This document shows, in pieces, positions 8,256 to 53,356 of a stretch of DNA of 64,000 bases. The DNA is from Acidimicrobiia bacterium (GTDB taxonomy: Bacteria > Actinomycetota > Acidimicrobiia > Spongiisociales > UBA5794): contig JAUIIM010000001.1 in NCBI GenBank assembly GCA_030431785.1, positions 3,323-67,322 on the forward strand, read 5' to 3'. The notes beneath the pieces were generated by a model. It saw nothing but the letters and a program-made list of their open reading frames with translations. It had not been told where the DNA came from and made no database searches. The stretch's first letter is position 1, and every line of letters starts with the position of its first letter. Both the position numbers and the translations under genes were made by a program.

Positions 8256-8287
8256 GGGCTGAACCCGCCGCCATTCCTGGTATGTGG

Positions 8288-8323
8288 ATTGTCGGAGCGC
8301 AGCGACCGTCCGATAGGGAGGGC
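8288..8323. repeat. single TGTCGGA-family octamer (GATTGTCGGA) plus related inverted copy CGACCGTCCGATAG
   Basis: Same motif as the tandem arrays at 11939, 15726 and 40683. Convergent intergenic region between the VIT gene and cobO. Confidence 0.4.
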
Positions 8324-8362
8324 GCAGCCCGATCGATCCGCCGGCCGGGCGAAGCTGAACGG

Positions 8363-11704: not shown

Positions 11705-11705
11705 G

Positions 11706-11935
11706 GGTTGTCTCCCTTCGGTGGAGGAGCCAACCGTTGCGAGTCGTGACCCCTCCTCCGAAGGTCGCCTCGCCTGCCGGTGTGGAGGCGACCTGGCTTA
11801 CCTCGTTGCGAGGATCACAGTTGCGGGACAGCGCCGGTTTCTCACCGGACTTCGCTCCAAAACGGCACCCGGGTCATCCCGGTACGCACGTTCAAGCATA
11901 CAGACAGTTGCCGACATCACGTCTCAGACGGACTG
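11706..11935 (-). promoter_or_regulatory. cobalamin (B12) riboswitch
   Basis: Minus-strand sequence GGUGCC...GAAGUCCGGUGAGAAACCGGCGCUGUCCCGCAACUGUGA (B12 box) followed by GGUAAGCCAGG and an expression platform where CCUCCACC can pair with the GGGAGA RBS. Ends directly at the btuF-like ATG. Confidence 0.85.
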
Positions 11936-11938
11936 GTA

Positions 11939-11968
11939 TGTCGGACTTTCGAATTGTCGGATTGTCAG
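11939..11968. repeat. degenerate TGTCGGA-family tandem array (TGTCGGAC..TTGTCGGATTGTCAG)
   Basis: Read directly. Divergent intergenic region 5' of the riboswitch. Confidence 0.6.
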
Positions 11969-12398
11969 TGCTAACCCGACATCTCGAGATTCTTGTCACC
12001 GATATCGTCCGGTCATGCGTTGTACCTACTGAGACCAACTTCGTGAGAGGTGAGGTGTGACGATTGCAGAACACACGGGCGAGCATGTCCCGATACGGGC
12101 GACGGCACGTGGCAAGGAGGACTTCTCGGTCTTCTACGAGCGCGAGGGGACGCAATCCAGGGTTGCGTCCCCTTCTCGTCTTAAACCTGATGGTGCCTAC
12201 CTCTACTCCAGCCCCTCCAGGCTCGCGGGCTCGCAGTCCCTCCTGGCGACAGCCGGTCTGCTCGACCGCCCGTCGCCTGTCCTCCCGCAAGGGGAGGACG
12301 CAAGTCAAGAGCGAATAGTGACGCCCTGCGTCCTCCCCCACTGTCCTCTGCTCGGTTCCGTGTCTTGCCAACCGGGATTCCGTTGTACCGTTCCTGTA

Positions 12399-12593
12399 TG
12401 AAGAAGATCGTCACTTTGTCGCTCGCCGTTGCTGCGGTCGTGCTCGGGGTGTTCATCGCCAAGCGTGACACCGTCGAACCCACACCTGACCACGGTGGGA
12501 CGTGGGAGCCACACGAGCCGTCCGAGCGATGAGAGTCGCGGTCGACACCAGAACCGAGGTCGGCAACCGAATGGTGCGGACGTTGCTCGCTGA
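12399..12593 (+). CDS. possible small membrane protein / leader ORF (MKKIVTLSLAVAAVVLGVFIAKRD...)
   Basis: ATG followed by a strongly hydrophobic signal/TM-like segment; the remainder is Arg-rich and overlaps the next gene out of frame. Not in the ORF track. Confidence 0.2.
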
Positions 12594-13245
12594 GGGCGAC
12601 GTTGCCTTCGTCGGAATCCTCAACGAAGCCGTGCCCTCCCGCAAGCGGTCGGGTTCGATCGATGACGTGTCCGGGTTCGACGTCCTGGTCACCGACGGTG
12701 AGGCGGACACGACGGATCTCCTCGCACAGGCCTCCGTGGCAGGGTGTCCCCTCGTCGTCTGGCCCGAACTCGCACGAATCGACTCGTCCGCAACTGTCCC
12801 GGTCGTCCACGACGCCAACGTGTCCGGCGCCCTCACCGCGGCGCTCGCGACACACCCAGCCACCGAGGTCAGCGTCGACGACACGCTGACCGTCGCGTGG
12901 ACGGAGCCAGGCAAGCCGCTGAAGCGGGGTCATCCACTGCCGTTTCCCGATCCGATCGGCGTGCTGTGGGGGAAGAAGAGAGACGACGGCCGATACGTAG
13001 CGTTCCGTGACGACGAGTGGGCCGGTGCAGTGATCGACATCGATGGAGCGAGTGGTCGCCGAATCGTCGGGGTCGCCGACCACGGGCCGTATCTCGAAGC
13101 CCTCATCCTTGCCGGTGTCACGATCGCAGCGGCTCGCGGCCACTACGCGACCGGAACCCATCCAGCGTCCTCTCAAGCCGAGCATCTCCTCCCCATCTTC
13201 GACGAACTTGAGACGGAGATCGCCGTCTGGCGTTCGGGCATCTGA
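12502..13245 (+). CDS. hypothetical protein (Rossmann-like N-terminus MRVAVDTRTEVG)
   Basis: Balanced composition and high GC3; a more likely ATG start is at 12529. The stop overlaps the next gene start (ATGA-type coupling). The antisense ORF 12181..13185 is rejected. Confidence 0.6.
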   Translation: MGATRAVRAMRVAVDTRTEVGNRMVRTLLAEGDVAFVGILNEAVPSRKRSGSIDDVSGFDVLVTDGEADTTDLLAQASVAGCPLVVWPELARIDSSATVPVVHDANVSGALTAALATHPATEVSVDDTLTVAWTEPGKPLKRGHPLPFPDPIGVLWGKKRDDGRYVAFRDDEWAGAVIDIDGASGRRIVGVADHGPYLEALILAGVTIAAARGHYATGTHPASSQAEHLLPIFDELETEIAVWRSGI

Positions 13246-15215
13246 TGCGACGACAGGTCACGCTCCTCGTCGCGGCAGTCGCGGTCGTGATGACGGCCTG
13301 TACGCCCTCATCGGACCCGGTCGAGACCACCACCACGCTGCCATCGGTCGCCGGCACGATCGATGCGCCCGAGTTCCCGCAAGGGATGGACTGGCTCAAC
13401 ACCGCAGCTCCCATCGCGATGAGCGACCTCAAGGGGAAGGTCGTCCTCCTCGACTTCTGGACCTACGGATGCATCAACTGCATCCACATCCTCCCCGACC
13501 TGCGACGCCTCGAGGAGGAGTTCGCCGAGGAATTGGTCGTGATCGGCGTCCACTCGGCGAAGTTCACGAACGAAGGTGCCACCGCGCAGCTGGCGGAAGT
13601 GGTCCAACGGTATGACATCACCCACCCCGTCGTGAACGACAAGGACTTCCTGATCTGGTCATCGTGGGGGGCGAACGCGTGGCCGACCGTCGCTGTCGTC
13701 GACCCCGCAGGGCGTGCGGTCGGGGTGCGTGCAGGCGAAGGGGTCTACGAAGCGATCCAACCGGTGATCGCACAACTCGTCGAAGAGTTCGATCGTGCCG
13801 ATGCCATTCGCCGTGAACCCCTCGAGCTGACACTTGAGGCAGAGTCCTCACCCTCGACTCCCCTCCGGTACCCCGGCAAGGTGCACGCGAGCGATGGACG
13901 TCTCTTCGTGGCAGACACCGGACACCACCGAATCGTGGAGGTCGATCCCGACACGGGCGAGGCGATCGGCGTGTGGGGATCGGGACAGCGCGGGTTCACC
14001 GACGGCGATGCCGCGACCGCTTCGTTCAGCGACCCACAAGGGCTTGCCTTCGACAGCTCCACGAGCGTCCTGTACGTCGCCGACGTCGGAAACCATTCGG
14101 TCCGATCGATCGACACTTCGACCGGGGAGGTCACGACCCTGGTCGGTGACGGCTCCCAGGGGTGGCCACCGACCGGTGGGACACTCGACGAGACAAGGCT
14201 CGCTTCACCATGGGCCCTCGAACTGGCCGAAGGACGACTCTTCGTCGCCAACGCGGGAACGCATCAAATCTGGTCGGTCGATCTCGATCGCGGCCTCGCA
14301 GAGCCGCTGATCGGCTCCGCCAGGGAGGGAACGCTGAACGGGCCGTTCGCCACCTCCGAACTCGCTCAGCCGAGTGGTCTCGCCCTCTCCGACGACGGAA
14401 AGCTCTACTTCGCCGACTCCGAATCCAGCTCAGTGCGGGTAGGGGACCTCGCCAACGGGCAGACATCCCTCGTCGTCGGCGGTGACGAAACACTCTTCGA
14501 CTTCGGAGATCTCGACGGCTCGGGCAACGAAGCCCGTCTCCAGCATCCTCTCGGTCTCGCGTTCGGTAGCGCCGGCGTCCTCTACGTGGCTGACACGTAC
14601 AACTCGAAGATCAAGCGCATCGACACAGGAACCGGAACCGTCACGTCATGGCTCGGCTCGGAACCGGGGTGGGCGGATGGAGATGCACCACTGTTCGACG
14701 AGCCCGGGGGCCTCGCTTTCGACGGCACGACCCTCTGGGTCGCCGATACGAACAATCACTCGCTCCGAACCATCGACCCGGTGACGGGAACTGTCAGTAC
14801 GTTGATCGTCACCGGCCTCGAGAAGTTCGAACCACCAACTTCCTACGCCGGTCCGGTCACCGAGATCGCAGGGTCCATCACCGCTTCGGCGGGACCGGGC
14901 ACGATCACGCTGGACTATGCGTTGCCCGACGGACACAAGGTGAACCCCGATGCGCCGTCGGCGGTGTCGATCACCGGCATCGGGATCGAACTGGCCGGAG
15001 ACGGTGACCTTACGGGCGCATCCTTGCCCATCGACGTGCCGGTCGAGTTCAGCGAGGGCTCGGGCGACGCCTACATCGACGTCAACCTCGTGTATTGCGC
15101 CGAGGAAGCGGAGAGCCTCTGCTTCATTGACCGAATGCGCTTCGTCGTGTCCCTCGTCGTAGGTCCGGCGGGCCCATCGAGCCAGATCACGATCGGGCGC
15201 GACGTGGAGAACTAG
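13245..15215 (+). CDS. secreted/lipoprotein thioredoxin-like (TlpA/ResA redoxin) domain fused to NHL-repeat beta-propeller
   Basis: Lipoprotein signal (...VVMTACTPSS), LLDFWTYGCINCIHILP CxxC redoxin motif, then about six NHL-type repeats (GHHRIVEVD, VADVGNHSVRSID, VANAGTHQIWSVD...). Confidence 0.85.
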   Translation: MRRQVTLLVAAVAVVMTACTPSSDPVETTTTLPSVAGTIDAPEFPQGMDWLNTAAPIAMSDLKGKVVLLDFWTYGCINCIHILPDLRRLEEEFAEELVVIGVHSAKFTNEGATAQLAEVVQRYDITHPVVNDKDFLIWSSWGANAWPTVAVVDPAGRAVGVRAGEGVYEAIQPVIAQLVEEFDRADAIRREPLELTLEAESSPSTPLRYPGKVHASDGRLFVADTGHHRIVEVDPDTGEAIGVWGSGQRGFTDGDAATASFSDPQGLAFDSSTSVLYVADVGNHSVRSIDTSTGEVTTLVGDGSQGWPPTGGTLDETRLASPWALELAEGRLFVANAGTHQIWSVDLDRGLAEPLIGSAREGTLNGPFATSELAQPSGLALSDDGKLYFADSESSSVRVGDLANGQTSLVVGGDETLFDFGDLDGSGNEARLQHPLGLAFGSAGVLYVADTYNSKIKRIDTGTGTVTSWLGSEPGWADGDAPLFDEPGGLAFDGTTLWVADTNNHSLRTIDPVTGTVSTLIVTGLEKFEPPTSYAGPVTEIAGSITASAGPGTITLDYALPDGHKVNPDAPSAVSITGIGIELAGDGDLTGASLPIDVPVEFSEGSGDAYIDVNLVYCAEEAESLCFIDRMRFVVSLVVGPAGPSSQITIGRDVEN

Positions 15216-15661
15216 CCGAGCGTTTGTTCGACAGTTTGCTCGTCGGAGATCGTCGACGTGGACCCGTTCGTGGGAACGTGCACGACGGGTCGTGGGCGCT
15301 GCGGCTCCGTCTCCACCGTTTCTTCGAGCGTGATGAATTCGATCCCGCCGACGACGTCAGACACCATGTTGTAGAGGATCGCAACGAGCGTGAGCAGCGC
15401 CGTCGCACCGATCACCCAGAGGATCGCAAGCATCAGCACGACCCGGAAGTACAAGTCACCATCAGGGGAGAACGCGATGGTGAGTCGACCGAGCATGTCG
15501 GCAAAGTCGTCCGGGATGCCGCGCTGGACCGCGATCGACCATGCGACCCAGATGCCGAGGGTCCAGATGAGTCCGATGACAAGGTTGATCAGGAACCCGG
15601 CCTTCAGGACGGTCCACGGATCCACCTTGCGAATGATGCGACGCACACGACGAATCGCCAT
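15212..15661 (-). CDS. DUF3566-like conserved membrane protein (Rv0007-like, downstream of gyrA)
   Basis: Start taken at MAIRRVRRIIRK (ATG 15661) with a GGAAGGAG RBS; two TM segments; conserved position after gyrA in Actinobacteria. Confidence 0.75.
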   Translation of the reverse strand: MAIRRVRRIIRKVDPWTVLKAGFLINLVIGLIWTLGIWVAWSIAVQRGIPDDFADMLGRLTIAFSPDGDLYFRVVLMLAILWVIGATALLTLVAILYNMVSDVVGGIEFITLEETVETEPQRPRPVVHVPTNGSTSTISDEQTVEQTLG

Positions 15662-15725
15662 GAGTGCTCCTTCCGACCGGAAGCCTACCGCTGTGCGCCA
15701 TATGCGCACGGAAGGTGGCGAGACC

Positions 15726-15757
15726 CGATTGTCGGATTGTCGGATTGTCGGATTGTC
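15726..15757. repeat. perfect tandem array 4 x GATTGTCG (TGTCGGAT family)
   Basis: gattgtcggattgtcggattgtcggattgtcg, between the gyrA stop and the DUF3566 start. Confidence 0.9.
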
Positions 15758-15781
15758 GGACCGAAGGGCCGGGCCGTCGGC

Positions 15782-18211
15782 CTAGTCCTCGTTCTGTGCG
15801 ATGGCGAGGGCGGTGAGGGTTGCTCCGTCGGCAAGGCTCATGACCTTGACCCCGGTGGTGTCCCTCCCCTGGCGTGAGATCTCCTTGGCGCCCTGACGGA
15901 TCACGATGCCGTCCGAGGACGTCATCACGACCTCGTGGTCCTCCGTCACGGCACGGGCCGCAGCGACGAGACCACGAACCTTCGTGAGCTTCATCGCCTT
16001 CACGCCCTTGCCGCCACGACCTTGCGTGCGGAAGTTCGAGACCTTGGTGCGCTTGCCGTAGCCACCGGTCGTCAGGATGAGCACGTCCTCCTCGTCATCG
16101 GCGACTGCCGCGGCGACCACCGAGTCCTCCTCATCCTTGAGGCGGATCCCGATCACCCCCTGGGAAGCACGGCCTGTCGGGCGGACGTCATCCTCGGAGA
16201 AGCGGATGCCTTGCCCGTTGCGGGTGAACATCATCAGATCCTTCTCGCCATTGGTGCGGCGCACGGCTACGACCTCGTCGTCATCCTTGAGGTTGATCGC
16301 AACGAGCACTTGATTTCGTGAGTCGTAGTCGGCGAACTTGGACTTCTTGACCATGCCGGACTTGGTGAACATCACGAGATACTTGTACGACTCGTAGTCG
16401 CGGGTATCGATGATCGCCTCGATCCGTTCGTCCGCCTCCAGGGGGAGGACGCTCTGGATGAGCGACCCGCGCGCAGTGCGGTCCTTCCTGGGCAATTCGT
16501 GTGCACGTACTCGGTAGACCTTGCCGCGATTCGTGAAGAACAGCAGATAGGCGTGGGCGGACGTGTGGAGCAGGTGCTCGATCACATCCTCTTCTTTCAG
16601 GTTCGAGCCCTTCACGCCGCGTCCGCCGCGTCCTTGCCTCCGGTAGGAGGATGCGAGCACAGACTTCACGTATCCGGAGGAGGTGACGCTCACGACGAGT
16701 TCTTCGTCCGCGATCATGTCCTCCAACGACATCGTCCCGGTGTCCGGGATGATCCTGCTACGCCGCGAGTCCGAGAACTTCTCCCGGATCTCCGTCAGCT
16801 CCTCGCTGATGAGCAGACGGCGCTTCTCCTCGTTCGCCAAGAGGTCGTTGAGGTAGGCGATCGTCGCTTCGAGCTCCTCGAGTTCCTCGCGCAGCTTGTT
16901 CGTCTCGAGTGCGGTCAGGCGACGAAGCGGCATGTCGAGGATGTGGTTCGCCTGGATCTCGGAGAGGTCGAAGTTCTCCATCAACGCAGTACGTGCCGCA
17001 TCGACGTTCGCCGACGAACGGATGATGCGGACGACTTCGTCGATGTTGTCCAGGGCGATGAGCAAGCCACGGACGATGTGCGCCCTCGCCTCTGCCTTCT
17101 CGAGACGGAACCGTGAGCGTCGCTCGATGACCTCGAGCTGATGGTCGACATAGTGATGGACGAGCTGTGCGAGGTTGAGTGTGCGGGGGACTCCGTCCAC
17201 GAGCGCGACGTTGTTGACCGAGAACGAGTCCTCCAGCTGACTGTGCTTGAAGATCAGGTTCTGGACGACCTGGACGTTGGCACCACGCTTGAGTTCGATC
17301 ACCATGCGCGTCCCATTACGGTCGGATTCATCGCGAAGGTCCGAGATGCCCTCGATCACCTTGTTGCGGACCGCATCCGCGATCTTCTCCATGACACGGT
17401 CGCGGGACACCTGATACGGGATCTCGGTGATGACGATGGCATGTCGGTCCTTACCGATCTCCTCGACATCGGTGACGGCACGCATCTTGATCGAGCCGCG
17501 TCCCGTCAGGAGGGCGTCCTTGATGCCCTTGTCACCGACGATGTAGGCACCCGTCGGGAAGTCTGGACCCTTGACGAACTCCATCAACTCCTCAGCCGAG
17601 GCGTCCGGATGATCGAGTGCATGGAGGACCGCGTCACATACCTCGCCGAGGTTGTGTGGAGCCATGTTCGTCGCCATACCGACGGCGATACCGGTGGAAC
17701 CGTTGACGAGAAGGTTGGGGAATCGGGCGGGGAGCACTTGCGGCTCGTCGCGCTCACCCGAGTAGTTGTCCACGAAGTCGACGGTGTCCTCGTCGATCCC
17801 ATCCATCATGTGCGCAGCAAGCTTGGCGAGCCGAGCCTCGACGTAGCGCATCGCCGCAGGCGGATCGTCGACCGTACCGAAGTTCCCCTGCGGATCGATC
17901 AACGGATACCGAAGAGCGAAGTCCTGTCCCAAACGCACCATGGAGTCGTACACGGCCTCGGGAGAGTGCGGGTGGAACCAACCAACGACATCACCGACCA
18001 CACGGGAGGCCTTGCGATAGGGGGTTCCGGGCCGGATGCCGCTGTCCCACATCGAGTACATCACGCGGCGGTGCACCGGCTTCAGGCCATCACGAACATC
18101 CGGGAGGGCACGCGAGACGATGACGGACATCGCATACTCGAGGAACGAGTCGCGCATCTCCTGGTTGATGTCGATCGCTTGGAACTCTTCTTGTATCGGT
18201 TCTTCAGGCAT
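15782..18211 (-). CDS. gyrA: DNA gyrase subunit A
   Basis: Full-length GyrA homology ([23 protein letters not shown]; C-terminal beta-pinwheel). Confidence 0.97.
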
Positions 18212-29117: not shown

Positions 29118-29961
29118 GAGTGGACTGGGTCGAGGGCTCGATGCCCTGATCCCGCAGGAACATCCAGCCGCCGGCTTTGCCGACGTCAAGGTCGATGCGA
29201 TCGATCCAAACCCCCAACAACCGAGGTCGGAGTTTGACCCGGCCGCGATCGACGCCCTTGCAGACTCCATCGCATCCGTCGGTGTCCTACAACCGATCGT
29301 GGTGCGGGTGGATGGCGACCGGTATGTCCTGGTGGCAGGCGAACGAAGGCTTCGAGCAGCGAAGCAGGCAGGTCTGGACTCGGTCCCGGCGGTGATCCGC
29401 TCTGAAACCGATGAGCAGACGAACCTCACGGAGGCGCTGATCGAGAATCTCCAGCGTGAGGACTTGTCGCCACTCGAAGAGGCGGCGGCCTTCCATCAGC
29501 TTATGGAAGAATATGGCATGACGCACGAGGCCGTGGCCGACAGTGTCGGGCGATCCCGGAGCGCAGTGACGAACACGGTGCGTCTGTTGAACCTCCCGGC
29601 CCCGATCCAGGCGATGGTGGCGAACGGCAGTCTCACGGCGGGTCATGCGCGTGCCCTGTTGGGGTCGGAGGACGAGACGTATGCGGTCCACATCGCTGAG
29701 CGCGCCGTTGCCGAGGGATGGACGGTGCGTCGGGTCGAGGAAGCGATTCGTCTCCGTGGCACCCAACAGACCGGCACCCGTGCTCCCTCCATCAAGGAGG
29801 TGCGCCCCGCTGCCATCATCGAGCTGGAGGACCGGCTTCAGGAGCGTCTCGGGACGAAGGTCAAGATCGACTACAAGGGCAAAGGTGGTCGGATCACGAT
29901 CAAGTACGCCTCCTCCGACGATCTTGAGCGGATCTACCGCCACCTGTTCGGCTCTGAATAG
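29104..29961 (+). CDS. parB: chromosome partitioning protein ParB
   Basis: Start taken at MAARKSGLGRGLDALI (ATG 29104); ParB box GERRLRAAKQAG; HTH. Confidence 0.9.
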   Translation: MAARKSGLGRGLDALIPQEHPAAGFADVKVDAIDPNPQQPRSEFDPAAIDALADSIASVGVLQPIVVRVDGDRYVLVAGERRLRAAKQAGLDSVPAVIRSETDEQTNLTEALIENLQREDLSPLEEAAAFHQLMEEYGMTHEAVADSVGRSRSAVTNTVRLLNLPAPIQAMVANGSLTAGHARALLGSEDETYAVHIAERAVAEGWTVRRVEEAIRLRGTQQTGTRAPSIKEVRPAAIIELEDRLQERLGTKVKIDYKGKGGRITIKYASSDDLERIYRHLFGSE

Positions 29962-29986
29962 CAAGTAGCCCATCGTCGATTGCGTG

Positions 29987-30008
29987 AACCCGATCGATGA
30001 TCCATGAT
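29987..30008. repeat. GATC-rich heptamer array ATGATCC x3
   Basis: cgatcgatgatccatgatccatgatcagg; shares 20 nt with 40658-40680. Confidence 0.8.
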
Positions 30009-30046
30009 CCATGATCAGGTGTCTGTAGGCGGTAAGCCGGTCGACC

Positions 30047-31021
30047 CTAGCTGCCTTCTCGATGCCCTCCGCGATACATCTCTGCAAGGGCTTGGGCCAC
30101 ATCGTGGCCGACTCGTCGGTCGAGGGTGCGTAGTGACAGGACGACGGCCGGAGCTCTGGTCTCTTTGAGGATGGGGAGGACTCGACCTGCGGGACGGACG
30201 ACGGCGAGGCGCGTCCCAAGATGTTCCGCGATTGCACGGCCCGCTTGCGATTCGCTGTGCTCTGAGCTGAAGTAGAAGATCCCTTCTTCGGACTGCTCGG
30301 CGATGGCAAAGCCGACGACGATGTCGACGTCCATCCGGCGGGACTTCTGCGCACGGAACAGTGGTGGGGGTGTGGTGTCCACGGAACGGCTGATCGTGGG
30401 CCGGCCTCCCATATTCTGGATGTCCGTTCTCGCCTCTGCCGCAGCAGACCAAGTCTGTGCCGCTTCCTCGGGCGAACGACACTCGGGGTCCAGATAGATG
30501 TGCTGTCCGGCGATCGAGCGGGGCAAGGTTTCGAGCCATTGGCGCTCCCGCACGGCTTCGCGGCCCTGCTTCTGCGTTGCCATGTCGACGAGCCTGAGTT
30601 CCTCGGCGACGGTGACGCCAGCAATACCATCCTCGGCCATGTGACGGTTGTGCTGAAAGTCGAGGAGTCCCTTCAACGTGTCAGGCCCGAAGACGCCGTC
30701 GACTTTCCCACTGTCGAATCCGAGCGAGTTCAGGCGGGCCTGGAGCTCGGCGACGTCGTCGCCCCGCATCATCGGCACACGGTGGTACAGCATTCGGTCT
30801 CCGAGCCGGTAGCCGGCTTCGACGAGCGACTTCCAGGTTTCGGGTCCGACGATGCCGTCGGGAGGGATGCCCCGCGACGACTGGAACTCGAGAACGGCAT
30901 CGAAGGTTGCGGCACCGAAGACGCCGAGTTCGTCTGGCGCACATTCAAACCCGAGCGCGGCAAGACGCTCCTGGACATCACGTACAGGTGCGCCTCGGTC
31001 GCCTTGGTGGTAGAGCCTCAC
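30047..31021 (-). CDS. cwlM: CwlM-like N-acetylmuramoyl-L-alanine amidase with two peptidoglycan-binding domains
   Basis: Two PG_binding_1-like repeats (VQERLAALGF...DGIVGPETW; LQARLNSLGF...DGVFGPDT) followed by an amidase_3-like C-terminus; conserved actinobacterial position next to trxA/trxB. Confidence 0.75.
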   Translation of the reverse strand: MRLYHQGDRGAPVRDVQERLAALGFECAPDELGVFGAATFDAVLEFQSSRGIPPDGIVGPETWKSLVEAGYRLGDRMLYHRVPMMRGDDVAELQARLNSLGFDSGKVDGVFGPDTLKGLLDFQHNRHMAEDGIAGVTVAEELRLVDMATQKQGREAVRERQWLETLPRSIAGQHIYLDPECRSPEEAAQTWSAAAEARTDIQNMGGRPTISRSVDTTPPPLFRAQKSRRMDVDIVVGFAIAEQSEEGIFYFSSEHSESQAGRAIAEHLGTRLAVVRPAGRVLPILKETRAPAVVLSLRTLDRRVGHDVAQALAEMYRGGHREGS

Positions 31022-31045
31022 AGCCTCATGCTGGCAGACGCGCTG

Positions 31046-31372
31046 CTAGTTGGTGAAGTCCTTGAGCTCTGACGCCAGTTGGGCCTTCGAGCGAGCTCCG
31101 ACGAGTCGACGCTTCTCTTCGCCCCCTTGGAACACGATCAGCGTAGGGATGCTCATCACGGAGTAGGCCGCTTGGAGCGACGGGTTCTCGTCGATGTTCA
31201 GCTTTGCGATGGTGAGCTTGCCGTCATAGTCAGCGGCGAGTTCCTCGAGCGGACCCTCCATCGCCTTGCACGGACCGCACCACTCGGCCCAGAAGTCGAC
31301 GAGCGTCGGTGTGTCCGAGGCGATGACCTCGTCGAAGCTGCTTTCGGTAACGGTCTTCGTGTTCTGACCCAT
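31046..31372 (-). CDS. trxA: thioredoxin
   Basis: WAEWCGPCK; ATG 31372 with GAAGGAGAA RBS (the track ORF is over-extended). Confidence 0.9.
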   Translation of the reverse strand: MGQNTKTVTESSFDEVIASDTPTLVDFWAEWCGPCKAMEGPLEELAADYDGKLTIAKLNIDENPSLQAAYSVMSIPTLIVFQGGEEKRRLVGARSKAQLASELKDFTN

Positions 31373-31427
31373 GGGTTCTCCTTCTCTTGGTGACCAATCG
31401 ATGAACGGTGATCGGCCACGAGTCTCT

Positions 31428-32348
31428 TCAGTGTTGTGATTCGAGCCAGCGTTCGGCGTCAAGGGCCGCCTGGCACCCGAGACCCGCGGCCGTGATCGCT
31501 TGCCGGTAAACCTTGTCTGTGACATCTCCCGCGGCATAGACGCCCTCGACCGATGTGCGTGTCGTTCCCGGCGCTACGAGGATGTAGCCGGCTTCATCGA
31601 GATCGATCTGATCGGCGAACACCTTCGTGTTCGGGTTGTGGCCGATCGCCACGAATACACCGTCGGTCGCGAGTTCACTCGTCTCACCCGTCTTGATGTT
31701 CTCGAGCTTGACCCCCTCGACGACGGTCTCACCGAAGATCTCGGTGAGCACCGTGTCCCAGATGACTTCGATCTTCGGATGGTCGAGCACGCGCTGGGCC
31801 ATGATCGTCGACGCTCGGAATTCGTCGCGGCGGTGGATGACGGTGACCTTCGAGGCGAACTTCGTGAGGAAGAGGGCTTCCTCCATCGCTGAATCGCCGC
31901 CACCGACGACGACGAGTTCCTTGTCCCGGAAGAAGAATCCGTCACAGGTGGCGCAGGCGGAGACGCCGAATCCGGTCAGGCGTTGCTCGCCTTCGATTCC
32001 GAGCCATCGTGCGGATGCACCGGTCGAGATGATCACTGACTCGGCCGAGTACTCGTCTTCTCCCACCCAGATCTTGAACGGACGCTCGGAGAAGTCGACC
32101 TTGGAGACATCGGAACTGAGGATCCTGGTACCGAAGCGTTCCGCCTGTTTCCTGATCTGTTCCATGAGTTCGGGACCCATGATCCCATCGGGGAATCCGG
32201 GGAAGTTCTCGACGTCGGTCGTGATCATGAGCTGGCCACCACGTTCGAACCCCTCGACCATCAATGGATCCAGGCCGGCGCGTGCCGCATAGATCGCAGC
32301 GGTCAACCCGGCAGGACCACTGCCGATGATGATCAACTTCTCTGTCAT
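31428..32348 (-). CDS. trxB: thioredoxin-disulfide reductase
   Basis: [23 protein letters not shown] motif and CATCDG redox-active disulfide; start at MTEKLIIIG (32348). Confidence 0.9.
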
Positions 32349-32653
32349 GAAGACTCCTGGTTGTTGCGGTCTTGCGGATAGCGGCGGATCCACAGGATGG
32401 CGCCACCGACCACAAGGAGGAGGCCGACGACTGCGTACGCGACCTCCACGCCCATAAGCGTTCCAAGGGCTCGGAATATTCCCACCAGAAGCCAGAACAC
32501 AGCCATGCAGATGGCGGTGAGCAGCACGATCGCAATCGCCGCCCAGGTGACGCCGACGGCGACCCGGTCGACCGTCATCTCGCGGATGCGCGTAGCGAGG
32601 TCTTCGAGAAGGTTTGCGACTCGTGCGGACAGTGGCGGTGTGGGTTCCGGCAT
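32345..32653 (-). CDS. small membrane protein (2 TM), hypothetical
   Basis: Start taken at MPEPTPPLS (ATG 32653); the N-terminal extension in the track ORF is low complexity; ATGA overlap with trxB. Confidence 0.5.
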
Positions 32654-32684
32654 GACCGGCAGACTAGTCGTGCGAGGGGTTCGG

Positions 32685-33515
32685 TTAGCGGTCGAGGTCG
32701 ACCACGGCGCAGGAGTCGAGATCGACCGCAAGGGTGGATTGGACGCCGTTCTGTCCGGCGATTCCGAGAACAACGACCTGACCGTCGCTACCAGTTCCGT
32801 CGTATGCCCCGAGTACGAACACGTCGGTCGTGTCCTCGGGGAGTGTCGGTGCCAGGAGTTCGAGACATGCCTCGATGGCGACCGGATCGAGCGAAACGCG
32901 AGACGAGTAGCCGATGTCCTCGATCGACTCCGCTGCCATCTCCTGCGAGTCGTCCTCGGCGGTCGCGCTCATCAGCTCCGCCGATGAGGTTCCGGAGAGA
33001 TCGGGCACGGAGATCCTGTCGTTCGTCGGCGACACCTCGACGATGCGCTCCAGGTCCTGTGGTGTGAACGGGACCTCCGACGGTGCAGAGCCTGCTTCTG
33101 CGCCGTCGTCACCTGTTGCTTCGTCGGTGGTGATCTCGGAGAACGCTGCCTCGTCGCCACCGGACCCGAGGGTGCCGGGGACGACGATCACGGCGACGAC
33201 TGCTGCGGCGGCTGCAAGACCGGTCATCGGCTTCCACCATCTCGCAAACAGGCCCGTCGACGCTGCACGGGGAGTTGCGACTGGCTCGTCGAGTGCGAGC
33301 TGTTGCGTGAGGCGCTGTCGGAGATCCGAGGATTCGTCGGCGGTCATCGCAACAGGTCCGAGACTGGAGAGTGTGTCAGACACGGAGACCTGTTCGGCGT
33401 AAGCCGTGGCGAATGCAGGGTCGGTCTCCAGACGCGCACGAGCCGCTGCCGCGTCATCCGGTGGCAGCGTCTGGTCGATGAGACCGATGATCAGTTCGAG
33501 GTCGCGGTCGTTCAT
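32685..33515 (-). CDS. anti-sigma factor (single TM), cognate of the adjacent ECF sigma
   Basis: ATGA-coupled to the sigma gene; one TM near residue 100; acidic extracytoplasmic domain; no zinc-finger motif seen. Confidence 0.55.
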   Translation of the reverse strand: MNDRDLELIIGLIDQTLPPDDAAAARARLETDPAFATAYAEQVSVSDTLSSLGPVAMTADESSDLRQRLTQQLALDEPVATPRAASTGLFARWWKPMTGLAAAAAVVAVIVVPGTLGSGGDEAAFSEITTDEATGDDGAEAGSAPSEVPFTPQDLERIVEVSPTNDRISVPDLSGTSSAELMSATAEDDSQEMAAESIEDIGYSSRVSLDPVAIEACLELLAPTLPEDTTDVFVLGAYDGTGSDGQVVVLGIAGQNGVQSTLAVDLDSCAVVDLDR

Positions 33516-34096
33516 GGTTCTCCGTCTACGTCTGTTGGATGCTCGGAGTCCGGATTCAGGTTCCCAAGTTTTCGGGCAAGCTGTTTGCGCGCTCGAAACA
33601 GGCGGCTCTTCACCGTGCCGCTCGGGACCTCGAGGATATCTGCGGCCTGCTCAACAGAAAGGCCCTGGAGATCGACGAGAACGACTGCTGCGCGGAACTC
33701 TTCGTTGAGGTCGTCGAGGGCAGCCTCGATACTGGGCCGCACGTCCACCGACTCGAACGCATCGCCTGCGGCGACGTCTTCGGGATCGTACGATTCGGGC
33801 AACTGGTCGGCCTGTTTGCGCTTCTTGCGGCGGAGGTGGTCGTAGCAGGTGTTCATCGCGACGCGGTACAGCCATGTGGAGAACGCTGCCTTTGCCTTGA
33901 AGCGGTCTGCCTTCCGGAACACGGTGAGGAACGTGTCCTGCGTTGCATCGAGGGCGGCTTCGCGATCTCGCATCATGCGCAGACAGATCGCAAAGACCCG
34001 GTCCTCGTGTGCATCCATCAGCTCGTTGAACGCGTCGATGTCGCCAGTGAGGTACCGGTCGATCAGCGCAACGTCGAGGTCGGCACGGTCTGTCAT
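33512..34096 (-). CDS. sigM: ECF RNA polymerase sigma factor (SigM-like by synteny)
   Basis: Region 2 (LYRVAMNTCYDHLRR) and region 4 (LSVEQAADILEVPSGTVKSRLFRARKQL). Confidence 0.9.
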   Translation of the reverse strand: MTDRADLDVALIDRYLTGDIDAFNELMDAHEDRVFAICLRMMRDREAALDATQDTFLTVFRKADRFKAKAAFSTWLYRVAMNTCYDHLRRKKRKQADQLPESYDPEDVAAGDAFESVDVRPSIEAALDDLNEEFRAAVVLVDLQGLSVEQAADILEVPSGTVKSRLFRARKQLARKLGNLNPDSEHPTDVDGEP

Positions 34097-34180
34097 CTCG
34101 GTGCGAGGTTAGGCGGGCCGGGGATCGGAGGACCGAGGAGCGTTGGAGAAGGACGTCGTCTGGCGGCATGCGAGAATGCC

Positions 34181-35470
34181 CTAGCCGCCAAACGATACGT
34201 CGTTGATGATGGCCTGATACGAACCGTCGGCGCGCTCAGGGAGATCGATGAGCCACAGTTGCCAGAGCCCGCCGCCGCGGACGGGAACTGGGAGCATCAC
34301 CTGGGATTCGAGGAGCGTGCCGCGAGCGATGTGCTCCCACTCTTCTGGATCGTCTGGGACGGCCGGCGCCCACCCGATGATGAAGGTCGTGCCCGGAGAG
34401 CCGCGGACACCGATGGTCGTGGGGGTGCCGTCGACGTCGAACACCAGCCCCACACCGTCCTTGAACTCTCGGATCGGCATGGAGTACGCCTCGGTCTGCC
34501 ACGTCGTACCGAGGTCGCCATCGACGACGCTGCCCACGGAATCGTCGCTCTCGGTTCCGTCGCCGAGAGGGTCGTAGACCTCGACCGACGCGGCGAGGCC
34601 ATCACCCGGATCTGGGCCCTCTACGACGATCGGTGCCGTCGTCGAGGACGAACTGCCTGAGTTGCCTGCGACGGGGTACAGGAACGGGGAGTCCGGGTCG
34701 AAGTCGGCAGCCAACCCGACCGCAGCGATCGCACAGATCAGGACGGTGATCACGCCGATGGTCGCAAGCGTGCGCCACGGTCTCGGGGCCGCCACCTCGG
34801 TCGGGGCCGACGACTTCTCGGCCTCGAGCTGGGCAGCCAGTGCGGTCGCGTCGAGGGTTCCGTCCATGGCAGCTGCCAGTGCCTCATCCACACCTGGCCC
34901 CACGCCTTCGAGCACGACCGAGGGCATGACCGTCTGATCATGCGATCCGGTCAGGGCCGCGCGGATCACCTCCGCCAGCGCCACCGTGTCTGCTGCCTGA
35001 TCCCTCCAGCGAGCTTCACGACCGAACGCACCGATCTTGGCCGGATGCGCCGCTGAGTAGTGGACGGCGGTGGTGTCGATGGCGCCGTGGACACCACCTG
35101 TGTCATGGAACCGAGCAAGCGCATTGCACAACCCGGCGGCGTTGCTGATGAACTCGCCGGGTGGGATCCCCTCGCCAGCGCGGATCCGGTCCTCGATGGT
35201 GACTCCGCCGTCCCACTCACTCACCGAATACGCGGATGCAGTGGTCTCAGCGGCGGCGAACACCTTCTGGAGGTGCAGCTCGGTGAGGGCTGCCGCAGAC
35301 CGTACGCCCGTCAGGAACTCGGTGTGGCGGTCATGGGATGCCTCCGGAGCGAGATAGCGGACCAGCACCGGACGATCGAGCGACGCATCCTGGGCGAGCC
35401 ATTCCTCGACATCCCCGTCACTTCCGAGCCGTATGTGAAGGCGGTATCGCTCAGGAAGCCGGGGGGGCAT
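34181..35470 (-). CDS. stand-alone pseudokinase - TM - extracellular domain protein (MviN/MurJ C-terminal module-like)
   Basis: N-terminus YRLHIRLGSDGDVEEWLAQDASLDRPVLVRYL mirrors a Ser/Thr kinase N-lobe, but the catalytic residues are substituted (VAIK Lys to Arg; HRD to HGA; DFG to AFG). Single TM, then an extracellular domain of roughly 190 aa. Confidence 0.75.
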   Translation of the reverse strand: MPPRLPERYRLHIRLGSDGDVEEWLAQDASLDRPVLVRYLAPEASHDRHTEFLTGVRSAAALTELHLQKVFAAAETTASAYSVSEWDGGVTIEDRIRAGEGIPPGEFISNAAGLCNALARFHDTGGVHGAIDTTAVHYSAAHPAKIGAFGREARWRDQAADTVALAEVIRAALTGSHDQTVMPSVVLEGVGPGVDEALAAAMDGTLDATALAAQLEAEKSSAPTEVAAPRPWRTLATIGVITVLICAIAAVGLAADFDPDSPFLYPVAGNSGSSSSTTAPIVVEGPDPGDGLAASVEVYDPLGDGTESDDSVGSVVDGDLGTTWQTEAYSMPIREFKDGVGLVFDVDGTPTTIGVRGSPGTTFIIGWAPAVPDDPEEWEHIARGTLLESQVMLPVPVRGGGLWQLWLIDLPERADGSYQAIINDVSFGG

Positions 35471-35472
35471 CG

Positions 35473-36207
35473 CTACTCAGCCCGGAGTACGGCCAACGTC
35501 TCCGGGAGGAGGACATACCCCTCACTGTCGTACAAGGAGATGGCCGGGGTGTTCTCTGCTTGCGTGTTGAGCAGCATTGCTTTCGACCCTGAACGCTTTG
35601 CCGCCCGTGCAGCCGCCCTGATGAGGCTTCGTCCCATGCCTTGACCTTGCCAGTCCGGATGCACGGCGACCCGTTGGAGGTACGAGATGGCGTGCCCGTA
35701 TCCGACGATCGCATAGCCGGTGCACCCGCCAGCACCGTCGGCGATGACGAACAGGTCGGCTTTCGCTGTGGCATTGAGCGCCTCAGCTATCGCCGTGCCG
35801 TCGAACTGCCAGAACGAGGCGAACGCTGCCATGTCGATTTCGAGCAACTCTGCGGTGGAGACCTCCCGGTCCCGGTGTACGAGGTGGTCGGGACCCGGGA
35901 TGTCTCGGTCGAGGGACAGACGAAGCAAGGCCAGGTCGATCGAAGGGACAAAGCCTGCTGCTTCCCACGCTTTGCGGGCCGACATCGCGAGTGGCGTGGA
36001 GAGGATTGCGGGTGCGCCCAGATCCCGGAGACGATTGACACAATCCTCCAAGAACGCCGAGCCGCCGCGGATCAGCCGGAGGTGTGCCTCCGGGTGCGAC
36101 GCGTTCCATGGACGCGCCTCGGACCGAGCCCAGCCGCGTCGAAGCGAGACGGCACCGGGCCAGGTACCACGTTGGAACACGCGATGTGAGGTGTCTGTCA
36201 GAGCCAT
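35473..36207 (-). CDS. GNAT family N-acetyltransferase
   Basis: C-terminal acetyl-CoA binding fold (QRVAVHPDWQGQGMGRSLI); start at MALTDTS (36207). The rest of the 531-aa track ORF is a shadow of the plus-strand HDAC gene. Confidence 0.75.
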   Translation of the reverse strand: MALTDTSHRVFQRGTWPGAVSLRRGWARSEARPWNASHPEAHLRLIRGGSAFLEDCVNRLRDLGAPAILSTPLAMSARKAWEAAGFVPSIDLALLRLSLDRDIPGPDHLVHRDREVSTAELLEIDMAAFASFWQFDGTAIAEALNATAKADLFVIADGAGGCTGYAIVGYGHAISYLQRVAVHPDWQGQGMGRSLIRAAARAAKRSGSKAMLLNTQAENTPAISLYDSEGYVLLPETLAVLRAE

Positions 36208-36261
36208 GGGCCCCCTCCGTCGGACTTGGCGCTGTGCCGGTAGCGTAGCGACCGTTGCGAG

Positions 36262-37299
36262 GTGCCTCATCCGTGGCACAATCAGACGATGCCTTTGCAT
36301 CTTGCGACGCACTCCTCCAGTTTGGAGCACCACACACCGCGAGGTCACCCCGAACGCGTCGATCGGATCACGGCGGTCACCGGGGCGCTGCGGTCGGGTG
36401 CGGTTGATGTCCTCGAGCTGGATGCTCCGAAAGTGCACGAGGACCTGCTTGCCTCCGTGCATTCCCGTTCCTATCTGGAGTCGGTCCGCACCTTCTGCTC
36501 CTCCGGAGGAGGGTCCCTCGATCCTGACACCTACGTCGTCCCTGCCTCCTATGAGGCAGCGCTCCACGCAGCAGGTGCAGGACCCGCACTCGTGAACCGG
36601 ATGCGAACCCATTCCGGCCCCGGATTCGTGGCGGTCCGCCCTCCGGGTCATCACGCCGAGCGCGATCGTGCGATGGGGTTCTGCTTGTTCAACAACATCG
36701 CAGTCACCGCCAAGTTCCTTGCGGAGATGGGTCAGCGGGTTGCGATCGTCGATTGGGATGTCCACCACGGCAACGGCACCCAGAACACCTTCTTCAAGGA
36801 TCCTTCCGTCATGTATGTGTCGTTGCACGAGTTCCCGTTCTATCCGGGGACAGGGTGGGTCTCTGAGCTTGGAGAAGGGGACGCCGTGGGGACGACGATC
36901 AACATCGCGCTCCCGAACGGCACCACGTCGACCGACTACCTGGCTGCGTTTCGACAGCTTGTGCTGCCTCCCGTTCGCCAGTTCGATCCGTCCTGGATCC
37001 TCATCAGCAACGGTTACGACGCCCACGTCGATGATCCACTCGGTGGCCTCCGGTTGGAGTCGGAGCACTACGGGTGGATGGCGGCAGCACTCTGCGACAT
37101 CGTCCCGAGTGACCGCATTGTCGCCTTCCTCGAAGGAGGCTACGACCTCGGTGCGCTTGAGAGCGGATCGATCGCTACTGCCCGGGGTCTACTCGGTGCC
37201 TATGGCGACTTCGAGCTCCCCGACGAGGTCGTCGGGCAGGCGCGGCGTGTGACCGACATGGCAGCCGACCTGATCTCCCGGCACTGGGATCTCGGTTAA
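36262..37299 (+). CDS. histone deacetylase/acetoin utilization (HDAC/AcuC) family protein
   Basis: PPGHHAE...GFCLFNNIA...DWDVHHGNGTQ...LEGGY motifs; the ATG at 36288 is an alternative start. Confidence 0.85.
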   Translation: MPHPWHNQTMPLHLATHSSSLEHHTPRGHPERVDRITAVTGALRSGAVDVLELDAPKVHEDLLASVHSRSYLESVRTFCSSGGGSLDPDTYVVPASYEAALHAAGAGPALVNRMRTHSGPGFVAVRPPGHHAERDRAMGFCLFNNIAVTAKFLAEMGQRVAIVDWDVHHGNGTQNTFFKDPSVMYVSLHEFPFYPGTGWVSELGEGDAVGTTINIALPNGTTSTDYLAAFRQLVLPPVRQFDPSWILISNGYDAHVDDPLGGLRLESEHYGWMAAALCDIVPSDRIVAFLEGGYDLGALESGSIATARGLLGAYGDFELPDEVVGQARRVTDMAADLISRHWDLG

Positions 37300-51613: not shown

Positions 51614-53356
51614 TCACGAGCAACCGTCGTTCCAGTCCGAATCGAACGAATCGAGCCATGCCGCCGTCGGTGCGCTCGCCGTCAAGCAGCCACTCTGGCC
51701 GTTGAGGGTCAGGATCGTGACGTTCGTCAGGGTTGCGAGTCCGTCGGGCACTGCACCTGTCAGGTCGTTGTCGTGGAACATGAACTGGTTGAGGTCGGTG
51801 AGATTTGCAACGGATGCGGGGATCGATCCGGAAAAGTCGTTGCCGAATCCGATGAGGTAGGCCATTTTGTGACCAGCGGGCCACTCGGGGATCGAACCAT
51901 CGAGTTGGTTGTTGGCGACGTTGAGAACTCGCATCTGGGTATTCGTCACGAAGCTCGCGGGGATCGATCCGGTGAGTTGATTCGAGTTCAGGTACACGTT
52001 GCGAAGCGTTGCGATGTCCCCGAGGTCTGAGGGAATGGTTCCGGTGAGCTGGTTGTCGCTGAGGGTCAGGCTGACGAGCATGGGGATGTCCGCCAGCTCC
52101 GTAGGGATCGTCCCCTCGAGCTGGTTCGAGTGGAGCTGTAGGAACTGGACCTGCGGGAGTTCCCCCAATTCCGTCGGGATCGTGCCGGTCAGCTGGTTGT
52201 TGCTGAGGTTCAGATAGATCACCTGATCCAAGTCCCTGAGTTCAGGAGGGATAGGACCAGAAAGGTCGTTGCTGTTCAGATACAGCCACCCGACGTTGGT
52301 CAGGTTCCCCAGCTCTGCAGGAATCGAACCGACGAGCTCGTTGTAGTCGAGCCAGAGGCGCTGGAGTCCCGTCAGGGTTGCGACATCGCCAGGAATCTGG
52401 CCCGCAATCTCGTTTTCGCTGAGGTCGAGCGTTCGCAACCCGATGCCGAGATCTCCGATGTCCGTGGGGAGTGTTCCGGTCAGGTTGTTGTCCATCAACT
52501 CAACCTCGTCGAGATGCTCAAAGTTGCAGGTGATACCGAACCAGGTGCATGGATCCGTCGTGGCGATCCAACCTGTGGAGTCGATCCATTCGGTCCCGTT
52601 CGTGGCATGGAACAGGTTCACCAGAGCGGCGCACTCCGTCTTGTCGAGGGTGGTCTGATGTCCGCACGCGTATGAGAGCGGTTGGCGATTCGAACCCGCC
52701 TCACCGACCGCCGGTTCACCGGCGAACCGCCACAAGAAGGTGGCGAACTGTGCCCTGGTCACGACATCATCCGGTGAAAAAGTCGACGGCGACGTCCCCT
52801 GGGTGATGCCTTCGTCGACCATCCAGGTGATCGGATCCGAGAACCACTGTCCATCCGGGACGTCGGAGAATCCCGATGATCCGGTCACTTCGGGTTCGCC
52901 GGCATAGCGATAGAAGAAGGTGGCGGCCTGTGCGCGGGTGAGATCTTGATCAGGCCCGTAGAGGTCTTCCGAAACACCGGCGGTGATTGCATGCAGGAGG
53001 AGCCATCCCACTGCATCGGAGAAGTAGTCCGCTTCCTCGACATCGTCGAACGATTGGTCGGCGCCGGGCAGTTCACCGCCGAAACGATGCAGGAAGGCGG
53101 CGAGATGGGCACGGGTGACCGGGTCGTGGGGTGAGAACGTCGTAGCCGACGTCCCTGACGTGATGCCCTGGTCGACCATCCAGTCCACCGGCGTCTCGTA
53201 GTACGAGCCGGGTTCCACGTCGTCGAACGCGAAGGCGACCGTTGCAGCGGCCAAGACACAGCCAAGCACCACTGCTATCACGATTCCCGACCTCTTGTTC
53301 CCAACCGTCTGCCGCACTTCCAATCCTTTCCATGGCTCAGGAGCACTATAGGACAT
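51614..53356 (-). CDS. cell-surface protein: signal anchor + three SLH domains + plant-type leucine-rich repeats
   Basis: Three repeats of FxDV..YY...VxWMVDxGITxGxS.xTFSP...VTRAQ.A.FLxRFAG (SLH), then about 12 LRRs of type LxxLxLxxNxLTGxIPxxLGxL, ending in a Cys-containing C-terminus. Confidence 0.8.
   Translation of the reverse strand: MSYSAPEPWKGLEVRQTVGNKRSGIVIAVVLGCVLAAATVAFAFDDVEPGSYYETPVDWMVDQGITSGTSATTFSPHDPVTRAHLAAFLHRFGGELPGADQSFDDVEEADYFSDAVGWLLLHAITAGVSEDLYGPDQDLTRAQAATFFYRYAGEPEVTGSSGFSDVPDGQWFSDPITWMVDEGITQGTSPSTFSPDDVVTRAQFATFLWRFAGEPAVGEAGSNRQPLSYACGHQTTLDKTECAALVNLFHATNGTEWIDSTGWIATTDPCTWFGITCNFEHLDEVELMDNNLTGTLPTDIGDLGIGLRTLDLSENEIAGQIPGDVATLTGLQRLWLDYNELVGSIPAELGNLTNVGWLYLNSNDLSGPIPPELRDLDQVIYLNLSNNQLTGTIPTELGELPQVQFLQLHSNQLEGTIPTELADIPMLVSLTLSDNQLTGTIPSDLGDIATLRNVYLNSNQLTGSIPASFVTNTQMRVLNVANNQLDGSIPEWPAGHKMAYLIGFGNDFSGSIPASVANLTDLNQFMFHDNDLTGAVPDGLATLTNVTILTLNGQSGCLTASAPTAAWLDSFDSDWNDGCS

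Follow-up and report, generated by a model that had tools for sequence, protein, structure and literature searches.

The minus-strand gene at positions 34181-35470 (stop codon included) of a 64,000-nt stretch of DNA from an Acidimicrobiia bacterium (GCA_030431785.1, contig JAUIIM010000001.1, positions 3,323-67,322 of the forward strand; hereafter the window) encodes a stand-alone protein in which a pseudokinase domain is followed by a single transmembrane helix and a CBM32-like ectodomain, as seen from the open reading frame (ORF), its homologs and an AlphaFold2 (AF2) model. The homology of this protein to the C-terminal half of actinobacterial MviN/MurJ is well supported. In terms of function, the interpretation that we favor and hold to be fairly probable is that the protein is the unfused equivalent of the C-terminal regulatory module of MviN/MurJ; it would serve as a non-catalytic glycan sensor and scaffold, and the MurJ on which it acts in trans would be encoded elsewhere. 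Orthology with the MviN module is argued from the position of the gene in a conserved cluster, from the protein architecture with its ectodomain signature, from the deletion of the activation loop, and from a structural match to the kinase-homology domain of Rv3910, the MviN of Mycobacterium tuberculosis (Mtb).

The ORF encodes 429 amino acids (aa) from an ATG start codon. More than 300 full-length homologs were found, and the best 120 listed are 59-90% identical to it. Nearly all of the homologs are 427-430 aa long, and those named by organism come from Acidimicrobiia or from Actinomycetota metagenome-assembled genomes (MAGs). The N-terminal sequence MPPRLP was invariant in an alignment of 15 close relatives. 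In-frame stop codons lie close upstream of the ATG and preclude an in-frame MurJ domain, and the stop codon of a GNAT acetyltransferase gene lies 2 nt before the ATG. The gene is genuine, conserved and separate, which confirms the earlier observation of a separate gene with a GNAT gene upstream (35473-36207) and no MurJ domain. The idea that the ORF derives from a MurJ-pseudokinase fusion by frameshift or misassembly was rejected as vanishingly improbable. No point in its support was found; an in-frame stop and the complete GNAT gene stand immediately upstream, MurJ-like sequence occurs in no frame of the window or of related loci, and the same 427-430-aa protein with the same N-terminus recurs in hundreds of independent assemblies.

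The AF2 model obtained with a deep alignment has a mean predicted local distance difference test (pLDDT) score of 90.9. The layout of the protein consists of a kinase-homology domain (residues 1-220), one transmembrane helix (232-254), a disordered linker, and a CBM32/F5-8C-like beta-sandwich (291-429). The cytoplasmic kinase-homology domain (34811-35470, minus strand) was delimited by sequence and family matches, by its fold and by a motif survey. In the model, residues 1-220 form a bilobal kinase fold, and the best Foldseek matches (E ~1e-10) were PknE, Stk1 and the Rv3910 kinase-homology domain (3uqc, 3oun, 3ouk, 3otv). Residues 4-150 matched the NCBIfam PknB_PASTA_kin profile (E 3e-11), and the PknB kinase domain in the PDB matched the protein at E 1e-10, while the Pfam Pkinase/PK_Tyr_Ser-Thr score of 16.8 bits is below the gathering threshold of 23.1. 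The sequence-only reading had assigned a kinase fold to the N-terminal 170 aa and had proposed profile searches and a structure prediction as a check on it; the fold was borne out, but the domain extends to approximately 220 aa.

Alignment with PknB showed that every catalytic residue has been replaced. The catalytic lysine (Lys40 in the VAVK motif of PknB) corresponds to R38, the alphaC glutamate (Glu59) to G55, the HRD motif to H128-G129-A130, the catalytic-loop asparagine to alanine, and the DFG motif to A148-F149-G150. The Lys-to-Arg, HRD-to-HGA and DFG-to-AFG changes had been read correctly from the sequence beforehand, and the glutamate and asparagine are now added to them. An active Hanks-type (PknB-like) kinase has an intact Lys-Glu pair together with HRDxxxxN and DFG, and all of these are replaced in this protein. 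The motif survey showed that the pattern is kept across the Acidimicrobiia clade, with the signature VL[VI]R / HGAID / (A)FGR. The distance from the AFG motif to the alphaF aspartate is 10 residues, compared with 37-39 in active relatives, which means that the activation segment has been deleted; in the AF2 model a helix (residues 158-174) comes directly after the AFG motif.

These replacements bear on whether some non-canonical, nucleotide-dependent activity is left, either through ATP binding by the beta3 arginine, as proposed for the ActPs2 pseudokinases, or through an alternative chemistry of the SelO kind. R38 is conserved within the Acidimicrobiia clade, and Lys-to-Arg pseudokinases that still bind nucleotide are on record (PMC12599244). 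However, the alphaC glutamate, the HRD aspartate, the catalytic-loop asparagine and the DFG aspartate are all gone, the glycine-rich loop (LGSDGDVEE) is acidic, the activation segment has been lost, and the MviN domain binds neither ATP nor Mg (PMC12599244). We therefore regard residual activity of this kind as very unlikely.

The N-lobe of the domain has residues of a putative dimerization surface. R8 and L31 align with R10 and L33 of PknB, which are residues of the back-to-back dimer interface; L31 is invariant, and R8 is present in at least 90% of family members. In MviN, the equivalents of dimer-interface residues, L750 and D793, are needed for the dimer contact (PMC12599244).

The single transmembrane helix (residues 232-254; 34709-34777, minus strand), seen as a helix in the AF2 model, is flanked by a PRPWR motif on the cytoplasmic side and by an acidic DFDPD motif on the outside. 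It is followed by a linker rich in proline, serine and threonine (residues 255-290; 34601-34708, minus strand), which is predicted to be extracytoplasmic, has low AF2 confidence (pLDDT ~50 at residues 256-290) and varies in sequence among close relatives. An extracellular domain of roughly 190 aa had been expected after a single transmembrane helix. The single helix was found, but the extracytoplasmic region has approximately 175 aa in total, made up of the disordered linker of about 35 aa and a folded ectodomain of about 140 aa.

The ectodomain (residues 291-429; 34184-34600, minus strand) is modeled as a beta-sandwich of the CBM32 or F5/8 type C (discoidin, galactose-binding-like) fold, as indicated by Foldseek, profile and Pfam results. 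It carries the conserved motif DPxGDGxE...DGDxxTxWxTExY...KxGVG...WLxW. CBM32 modules were matched in Foldseek searches with the ectodomain, at E values from 1e-7 to 1e-5 and with a TMt of up to 0.70. An earlier AF2 model, for which the alignment was shallow, predicted the kinase domain poorly (pLDDT 64), and only its well-predicted ectodomain was used with Foldseek. Profile searches matched the galactose-binding domain of a Micromonospora sialidase, the F5/8C domains of a Bacteroides chitobiase, and galactose oxidase (E ~5e-4). The window protein's own ectodomain had no match in Pfam; the Pfam F5_F8_type_C domain was identified in 21 of 87 family members, and a MurJ-fused relative (P0237) also carries an F5/8C domain. 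The ectodomain may bind sugar.

The chromosomal setting of the gene links it to mviN. The order of the mycobacterial genes from Rv3907c to Rv3919c is pcnA-...-mviN-sigM-anti-sigM-trxB-trxC-cwlM-parB-parA-gid, in which mviN (Rv3910) lies between Rv3909 and sigM. The window contains the cluster CCA...[pseudokinase]-sigM-anti-sigma-trxB-trxA-cwlM-parB, and the pseudokinase gene occupies the mviN slot, in a conserved, operon-like group of envelope genes. In other genomes the same slot holds either a fused gene (locus L011) or separate genes (loci L006, L010 and L057). Structural data are consistent with this placement. The Rv3910 kinase-homology structures were found at Foldseek ranks 3-13, with target-normalized TM-scores of 0.72-0.73, the highest among the 50 listed matches, and a root-mean-square deviation of ~3.1-3.3 over 237 columns. 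A broad profile of the family was the only one to match Rv3910; it did so at E 3.6e-26, and all of the eukaryotic kinases listed ranked lower. The close-family profile did not find the Rv3910 structures. The proposal that this is an MviN-type C-terminal module adjoining sigM thus holds on the synteny from CCA to parB, on the alignment with the fused protein P0237, and on the structural and profile matches to Rv3910.

Compared with MviN of Mtb, the likeness extends over the whole module. The C-terminal module of Rv3910 (kinase homology at residues ~681-963) has no catalytic residues and a truncated activation segment, it has one transmembrane helix followed by an extracytoplasmic domain of a carbohydrate-binding type, and its gene has the same origin-proximal position by sigM, trxB, trxC and cwlM. 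In contrast, the Mtb module is fused to a 14-helix flippase, and the Mtb protein has a 140-aa linker that binds CwlM, whereas the window protein starts at the kinase N-lobe and has no such linker. The protein also fits the description of ActPs3, a group of actinobacterial pseudokinases in which all motifs have been lost, the activation loop is deleted and a C-terminal transmembrane helix is present (PMC12599244; bioRxiv 10.1101/2025.01.12.632604): the VAIK lysine, the HRD aspartate and the DFG aspartate are lost, and both the deletion and the C-terminal helix are found. The activation-loop deletion described for ActPs3 comprises approximately 40 residues, and the constraints specific to the family include aromatic residues that fill the ATP pocket (F724 and W789 in Mtb). 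The fit is incomplete, however, since the beta3 Lys-to-Arg change (R38 here) is described as a hallmark of ActPs2, and since ActPs3 members other than MviN are said to be without a carbohydrate-binding domain (PMC12599244; bioRxiv 10.1101/2025.01.12.632604), while the window protein and its relatives have one.

A survey of relatives was performed to define the architectures in which the module occurs. An exhaustive profile search with the pseudokinase family gave ~32,000 proteins at E <=0.001, and the best 150 representatives were surveyed. Both the kinase-like domain and the ectodomain were present in 104 of them. Approximately 100 of these 104 have the kinase-like domain at the N-terminus and are stand-alone proteins, a MurJ domain precedes it in just one (P0237, 1116 aa), and roughly a quarter are apparently active kinases with intact VAVK, HRD and DFG motifs. 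The fused protein P0237 could be aligned with the window protein over both the kinase-like domain and the ectodomain, including the ectodomain signature.

Four states were observed at the orthologous locus: a MurJ fusion, adjacent murJ and pseudokinase genes, an apparently active kinase, and an orphan pseudokinase. In the fused state (L011), the gene for MurJ::PK::F5/8C (P0237; PK, pseudokinase) is followed by sigM. In the adjacent state, the order is DUF6049-murJ-(small ORF)-PK-sigM-anti-sigma-trxB-trxA-cwlM in L006, from an Actinomycetota MAG, and in L010, from an Acidothermus sp. MAG; murJ also immediately precedes the pseudokinase gene in L005, which is too short to show its flanks, and in L057, where trxB follows the pseudokinase gene directly and sigM is absent. 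All four adjacent loci likewise encode a stand-alone protein with a kinase-like domain, a transmembrane helix and an F5/8C domain (445-649 aa). L006, L010 and L057 share the CCA, sigM, trx and cwlM flanks of the window, except that L057 is without sigM. They differ from the window lineage in keeping DUF6049 (Rv3909-like) and murJ directly upstream, where the window lineage has the GNAT gene. The apparently active state was observed in L058, in which a 735-aa kinase (7929-10136) with intact VAVK, HRD and DFG motifs and a homologous ectodomain (38% identity) lies between DUF6049 and sigM in the order CCA-pilT-deacetylase-GNAT-DUF6049-...-sigM, with no murJ. This arrangement suggests that the resident gene of the locus was originally an active receptor kinase. 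In total, the six orthologous loci examined outside the Acidimicrobiia lineage had separate murJ and pseudokinase genes in four cases, a fusion in one (L011), and an active kinase without murJ in one (L058). A small ORF stands between murJ or DUF6049 and the kinase-like gene in L006 (9550-9957, 135 aa), L010 (6361-6798, 145 aa) and L058 (7533-7742, 69 aa), and the three have a common C-terminal motif, ...L/I-x-x-x-G-P-L-x-x-W-x-x-V....

The survey also bears on the alternative that the protein is a degenerate paralogue of a PknB-type receptor kinase which came to this locus by chance and is not orthologous to the MviN module, its architecture being the result of domain shuffling. PknB is indeed the best sequence match, and together with Stk1 and StkP it has the same topology of a cytoplasmic kinase domain, one transmembrane helix and a wall-facing sensor. 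The same ectodomain occurs on apparently active kinases (12 of 87 proteins in one family alignment, and others in the survey), and an active-looking kinase is present at the same locus position in L058. The window protein differs from these kinases in being catalytically dead, in having a CBM32-like sensor instead of PASTA repeats, and in having lost the activation segment. Against the alternative, this deletion is one that it has in common with the ActPs3/MviN type, fused, separate and orphan forms are all found in one locus position, P0237 aligns over both domains and the ectodomain signature, and the active kinase of L058 is just as compatible with an active receptor kinase having been ancestral here. 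A chance paralogue accordingly appears improbable.

In the Acidimicrobiia lineage itself, related loci were retrieved by a genome scan with an alignment of close relatives, which covers this lineage only and includes flanks of up to 10 kb. The order of the GNAT gene and the pseudokinase gene was the same in all 44 species-representative genomes (GTDB), and sigM was the next gene after the pseudokinase gene in 40 of the 41 loci long enough to show it, the exception being L034. The orphan pseudokinase state is fixed in the lineage. In L034, a hairpin-like inverted repeat is followed downstream by a different set of genes (11290-16788), with no sigM; the locus may have been rearranged, or the contig may be chimeric. 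Four of the loci with the typical Acidimicrobiia arrangement (L031, L039, L045 and L049) are on contigs of MAGs labeled Kiloniellales, Acidobacteria or Armatimonadetes; these contigs are probably mis-binned, or the bins mislabeled.

Searches with tblastn gave no match to MurJ or DUF6049 in the 44 species loci and their flanks of up to 10 kb. Neither was found in the 64-kb window or in L001-L004, L008 and L012, which represent close and more distant Acidimicrobiia relatives, and the window contains no ORF with 10 or more transmembrane segments. When protein databases were searched with MurJ queries, all matches came from close relatives of the query lineages and none was named Acidimicrobiia, which makes these searches uninformative as to the location of murJ.

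These results affect the claim that the arrangement implies a split of the flippase from its regulatory pseudokinase, which was not borne out. Separate genes were found in four of the six comparison loci and the fusion in only one of the 104 two-domain representatives, so the unfused state may be ancestral and the fusion derived. In addition, murJ is not even adjacent in the Acidimicrobiia lineage, which goes beyond a simple split. In a neighbor-joining tree the Acidimicrobiia proteins form one clade, and the deeper branches are unresolved and give no basis for a direction of fusion or fission; a split is unproven in direction.

Under the favored interpretation, that of a free-standing MviN-type module acting on MurJ in trans, the protein would cross the membrane once, with the kinase-like domain facing the cytoplasm and the CBM32-like domain facing the cell wall. 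The ectodomain would read a wall glycan, either peptidoglycan or a precursor of it, and the pseudokinase would serve as a non-catalytic sensor and scaffold. With R8 and L31, the N-lobe may keep the back-to-back dimer surface of the PknB type. Binding of the glycan outside could then control homodimerization, or pairing with a genuine PknB-type kinase, and this in turn would control the cytoplasmic partners that govern the export of peptidoglycan precursor by a MurJ encoded elsewhere.

The partners of the mycobacterial module offer a limited guide. In mycobacteria, T947 of the pseudokinase domain (Mtb numbering) is phosphorylated and the domain recruits FhaA; CwlM binds the linker region of MurJ instead (PMC10166564, PMC6180346). 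T947 lies next to the membrane, and after its phosphorylation by PknB it docks the FHA domain of FhaA. FhaA recruitment is known only for mycobacteria. Since the window protein has no MurJ linker region and no conserved threonine next to the membrane, the FhaA step is not simply transferable to it.

Several observations weigh against the favored interpretation. First, murJ was not located in the Acidimicrobiia lineage, either in the window or in the flanks, and action in trans on MurJ is an assumption. Second, the broad family profile gave PknB a better E value (6.5e-47) than Rv3910 (3.6e-26), and the single window protein, when used in a phmmer search, gave no match to the Rv3910 structures even at E values up to 10. 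The motifs also differ, being VLVR/HGAID/AFG in the window protein and VALT/LSIDH/Y-- in Mtb MviN. With the sequence match to Rv3910 being this weak, the link to MviN rests on synteny, architecture and the fused intermediate. Third, the 16-aa juxtamembrane linker between the last helix of the kinase domain and the transmembrane helix contains no conserved threonine, and a docking site of the Mtb T947-FhaA kind was not evident in it, as judged without a residue-level alignment to the Mtb sequence. Finally, the position equivalent to D76 of PknB, which belongs to the dimer interface, is alanine in the Acidimicrobiia clade.

The conserved position next to sigM raises the alternative that the pseudokinase is mainly the sensor arm of a SigM/anti-SigM envelope-stress unit, possibly together with the thioredoxin and CwlM-like genes, that it modulates the membrane anti-sigma factor through its glycan-binding ectodomain and its dead kinase domain, and that fusion with MurJ in mycobacteria is secondary. 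The adjacency of the two genes persists without murJ, both in the 40 of 41 Acidimicrobiia loci and in L058, and it is also seen in the separate and fused forms (L006, L010 and L011). The stop codon of the pseudokinase (or kinase) gene overlaps the start of sigM in L006, L008, L012 and L058, and mycobacterial MurJ does not need the pseudokinase domain in order to function (PMC6180346). However, that two genes are adjacent is no evidence that their products interact. In the window, 84 nt separate the pseudokinase gene from sigM and the tightly coupled neighbor is the GNAT gene, L057 has murJ and the pseudokinase gene followed by trxB with no sigM, and sigM is missing downstream in L034. We know of no anti-sigma system with a pseudokinase partner, which also counts against the SigM sensor, and on balance we consider it possible but rather unlikely.

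A broader form of this idea is that the protein represents an ancient, self-standing wall sensor of Actinomycetota whose primary partner is the cluster of sigM, anti-sigM, thioredoxin and CwlM genes; it would have been an active receptor kinase first, would have lost catalysis repeatedly, and would later have been welded to MurJ in the mycolate lineage. We put this forward only tentatively, as a doubtful reading. If it is true, the pseudokinase tail of mycobacterial MviN would be a captured sensor of the SigM pathway, and the Acidimicrobiia would show a function independent of MurJ.

Few bacterial pseudokinases have been given a proposed function, and the pseudokinase tail of mycobacterial MviN is one of them. 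According to a study from 2023, this tail is restricted to bacteria that have arabinogalactan (PMC10166564), and the literature searched contained no description of a pseudokinase module with a sugar-binding-type domain as a separate gene at this locus in non-mycolate Actinomycetota. Our data indicate that in non-mycolate Actinomycetota the module, with its sugar-binding-type domain, is a widespread, separate and strongly conserved gene at the same chromosomal position. The Acidimicrobiia keep it, and neither the 64-kb window nor the flanks fetched from related genomes contain a flippase gene; an active-looking kinase can fill the same slot. By these points the module is recast as a putative independent wall sensor. 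Such naturally domain-separated versions would allow the roles of the pseudokinase and the ectodomain to be studied apart from an essential flippase, although, with MAGs as the only source for the lineage, they are of limited practical value.

The window spans the region of the replication origin, with gyrA, gyrB, recF, dnaN and dnaA on one side and yidC, gidB, parA and parB on the other. The minus-strand order is cwlM-like, trxA, trxB, a small membrane protein gene, the anti-sigma factor gene, sigM, the pseudokinase gene and the GNAT gene; beyond the GNAT gene, the plus strand carries genes for a deacetylase, pilT, RNase H and the CCA-adding enzyme. The GNAT acetyltransferase (35473-36207, minus strand, 244 aa) was assigned by Pfam Acetyltransf_1/7. 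Its best match is RimI-like and below the cut-off, and its gene precedes the pseudokinase gene in all of the 44 species loci (L013-L056). The spacing of 2 nt makes co-transcription or translational coupling of the two genes probable. Downstream, sigM (33512-34096, minus strand) encodes an extracytoplasmic function sigma factor of the SigM type with Sigma70_r2 and r4_2 domains; it matched NCBIfam SigM PRK09643 at E 5e-54, with 183 bits against a cut-off of 190. Its stop overlaps by 4 nt the start of the gene for a putative membrane anti-sigma factor (32685-33515, minus strand), which was assigned from its conserved position and from an NCBIfam anti-sigma match at E 1e-6 that is below the cut-off.

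The remaining genes of the cluster are also on the minus strand. The ORF at 32345-32653 encodes a small membrane protein (about 102 aa) that is conserved, and genes of 95-118 aa stand at the same place in L001, L002, L008 and L012; it is only weakly similar to Holin-X and RseC-type families and was present in every related locus examined. It is followed by thioredoxin reductase (trxB, 31428-32348, start inferred at MTEKLII) and by a 108-aa thioredoxin (trxA/trxC, 31046-31372); both are ORFs with counterparts at the same positions in related loci, namely Pyr_redox_2 genes and a 108-aa thioredoxin, respectively. The CwlM-like protein (30047-31021) has two PG_binding_1 domains by Pfam, and its 37% identity to the CwlM of Acidothermus is confined to the first 187 aa. 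Its C-terminal ~145 aa had no Pfam match to Amidase_3, as in the related Acidimicrobiia loci, while the CwlM of L006 and L010 retains this domain. The sequence LDPECRS stands where we would expect the amidase metal-site motif DPGHGG, and the neighbor may be a purely regulatory CwlM. A scan of 29900-36700 for promoters and terminators gave nothing above chance, and the 64-kb window contains no gene for an FHA protein, PknB or PstP. Elsewhere in the window, two unusual envelope proteins were observed, one with SLH domains and leucine-rich repeats (51614-53356, minus strand) and the other with a thioredoxin-like domain and NHL repeats (13245-15215, plus strand).

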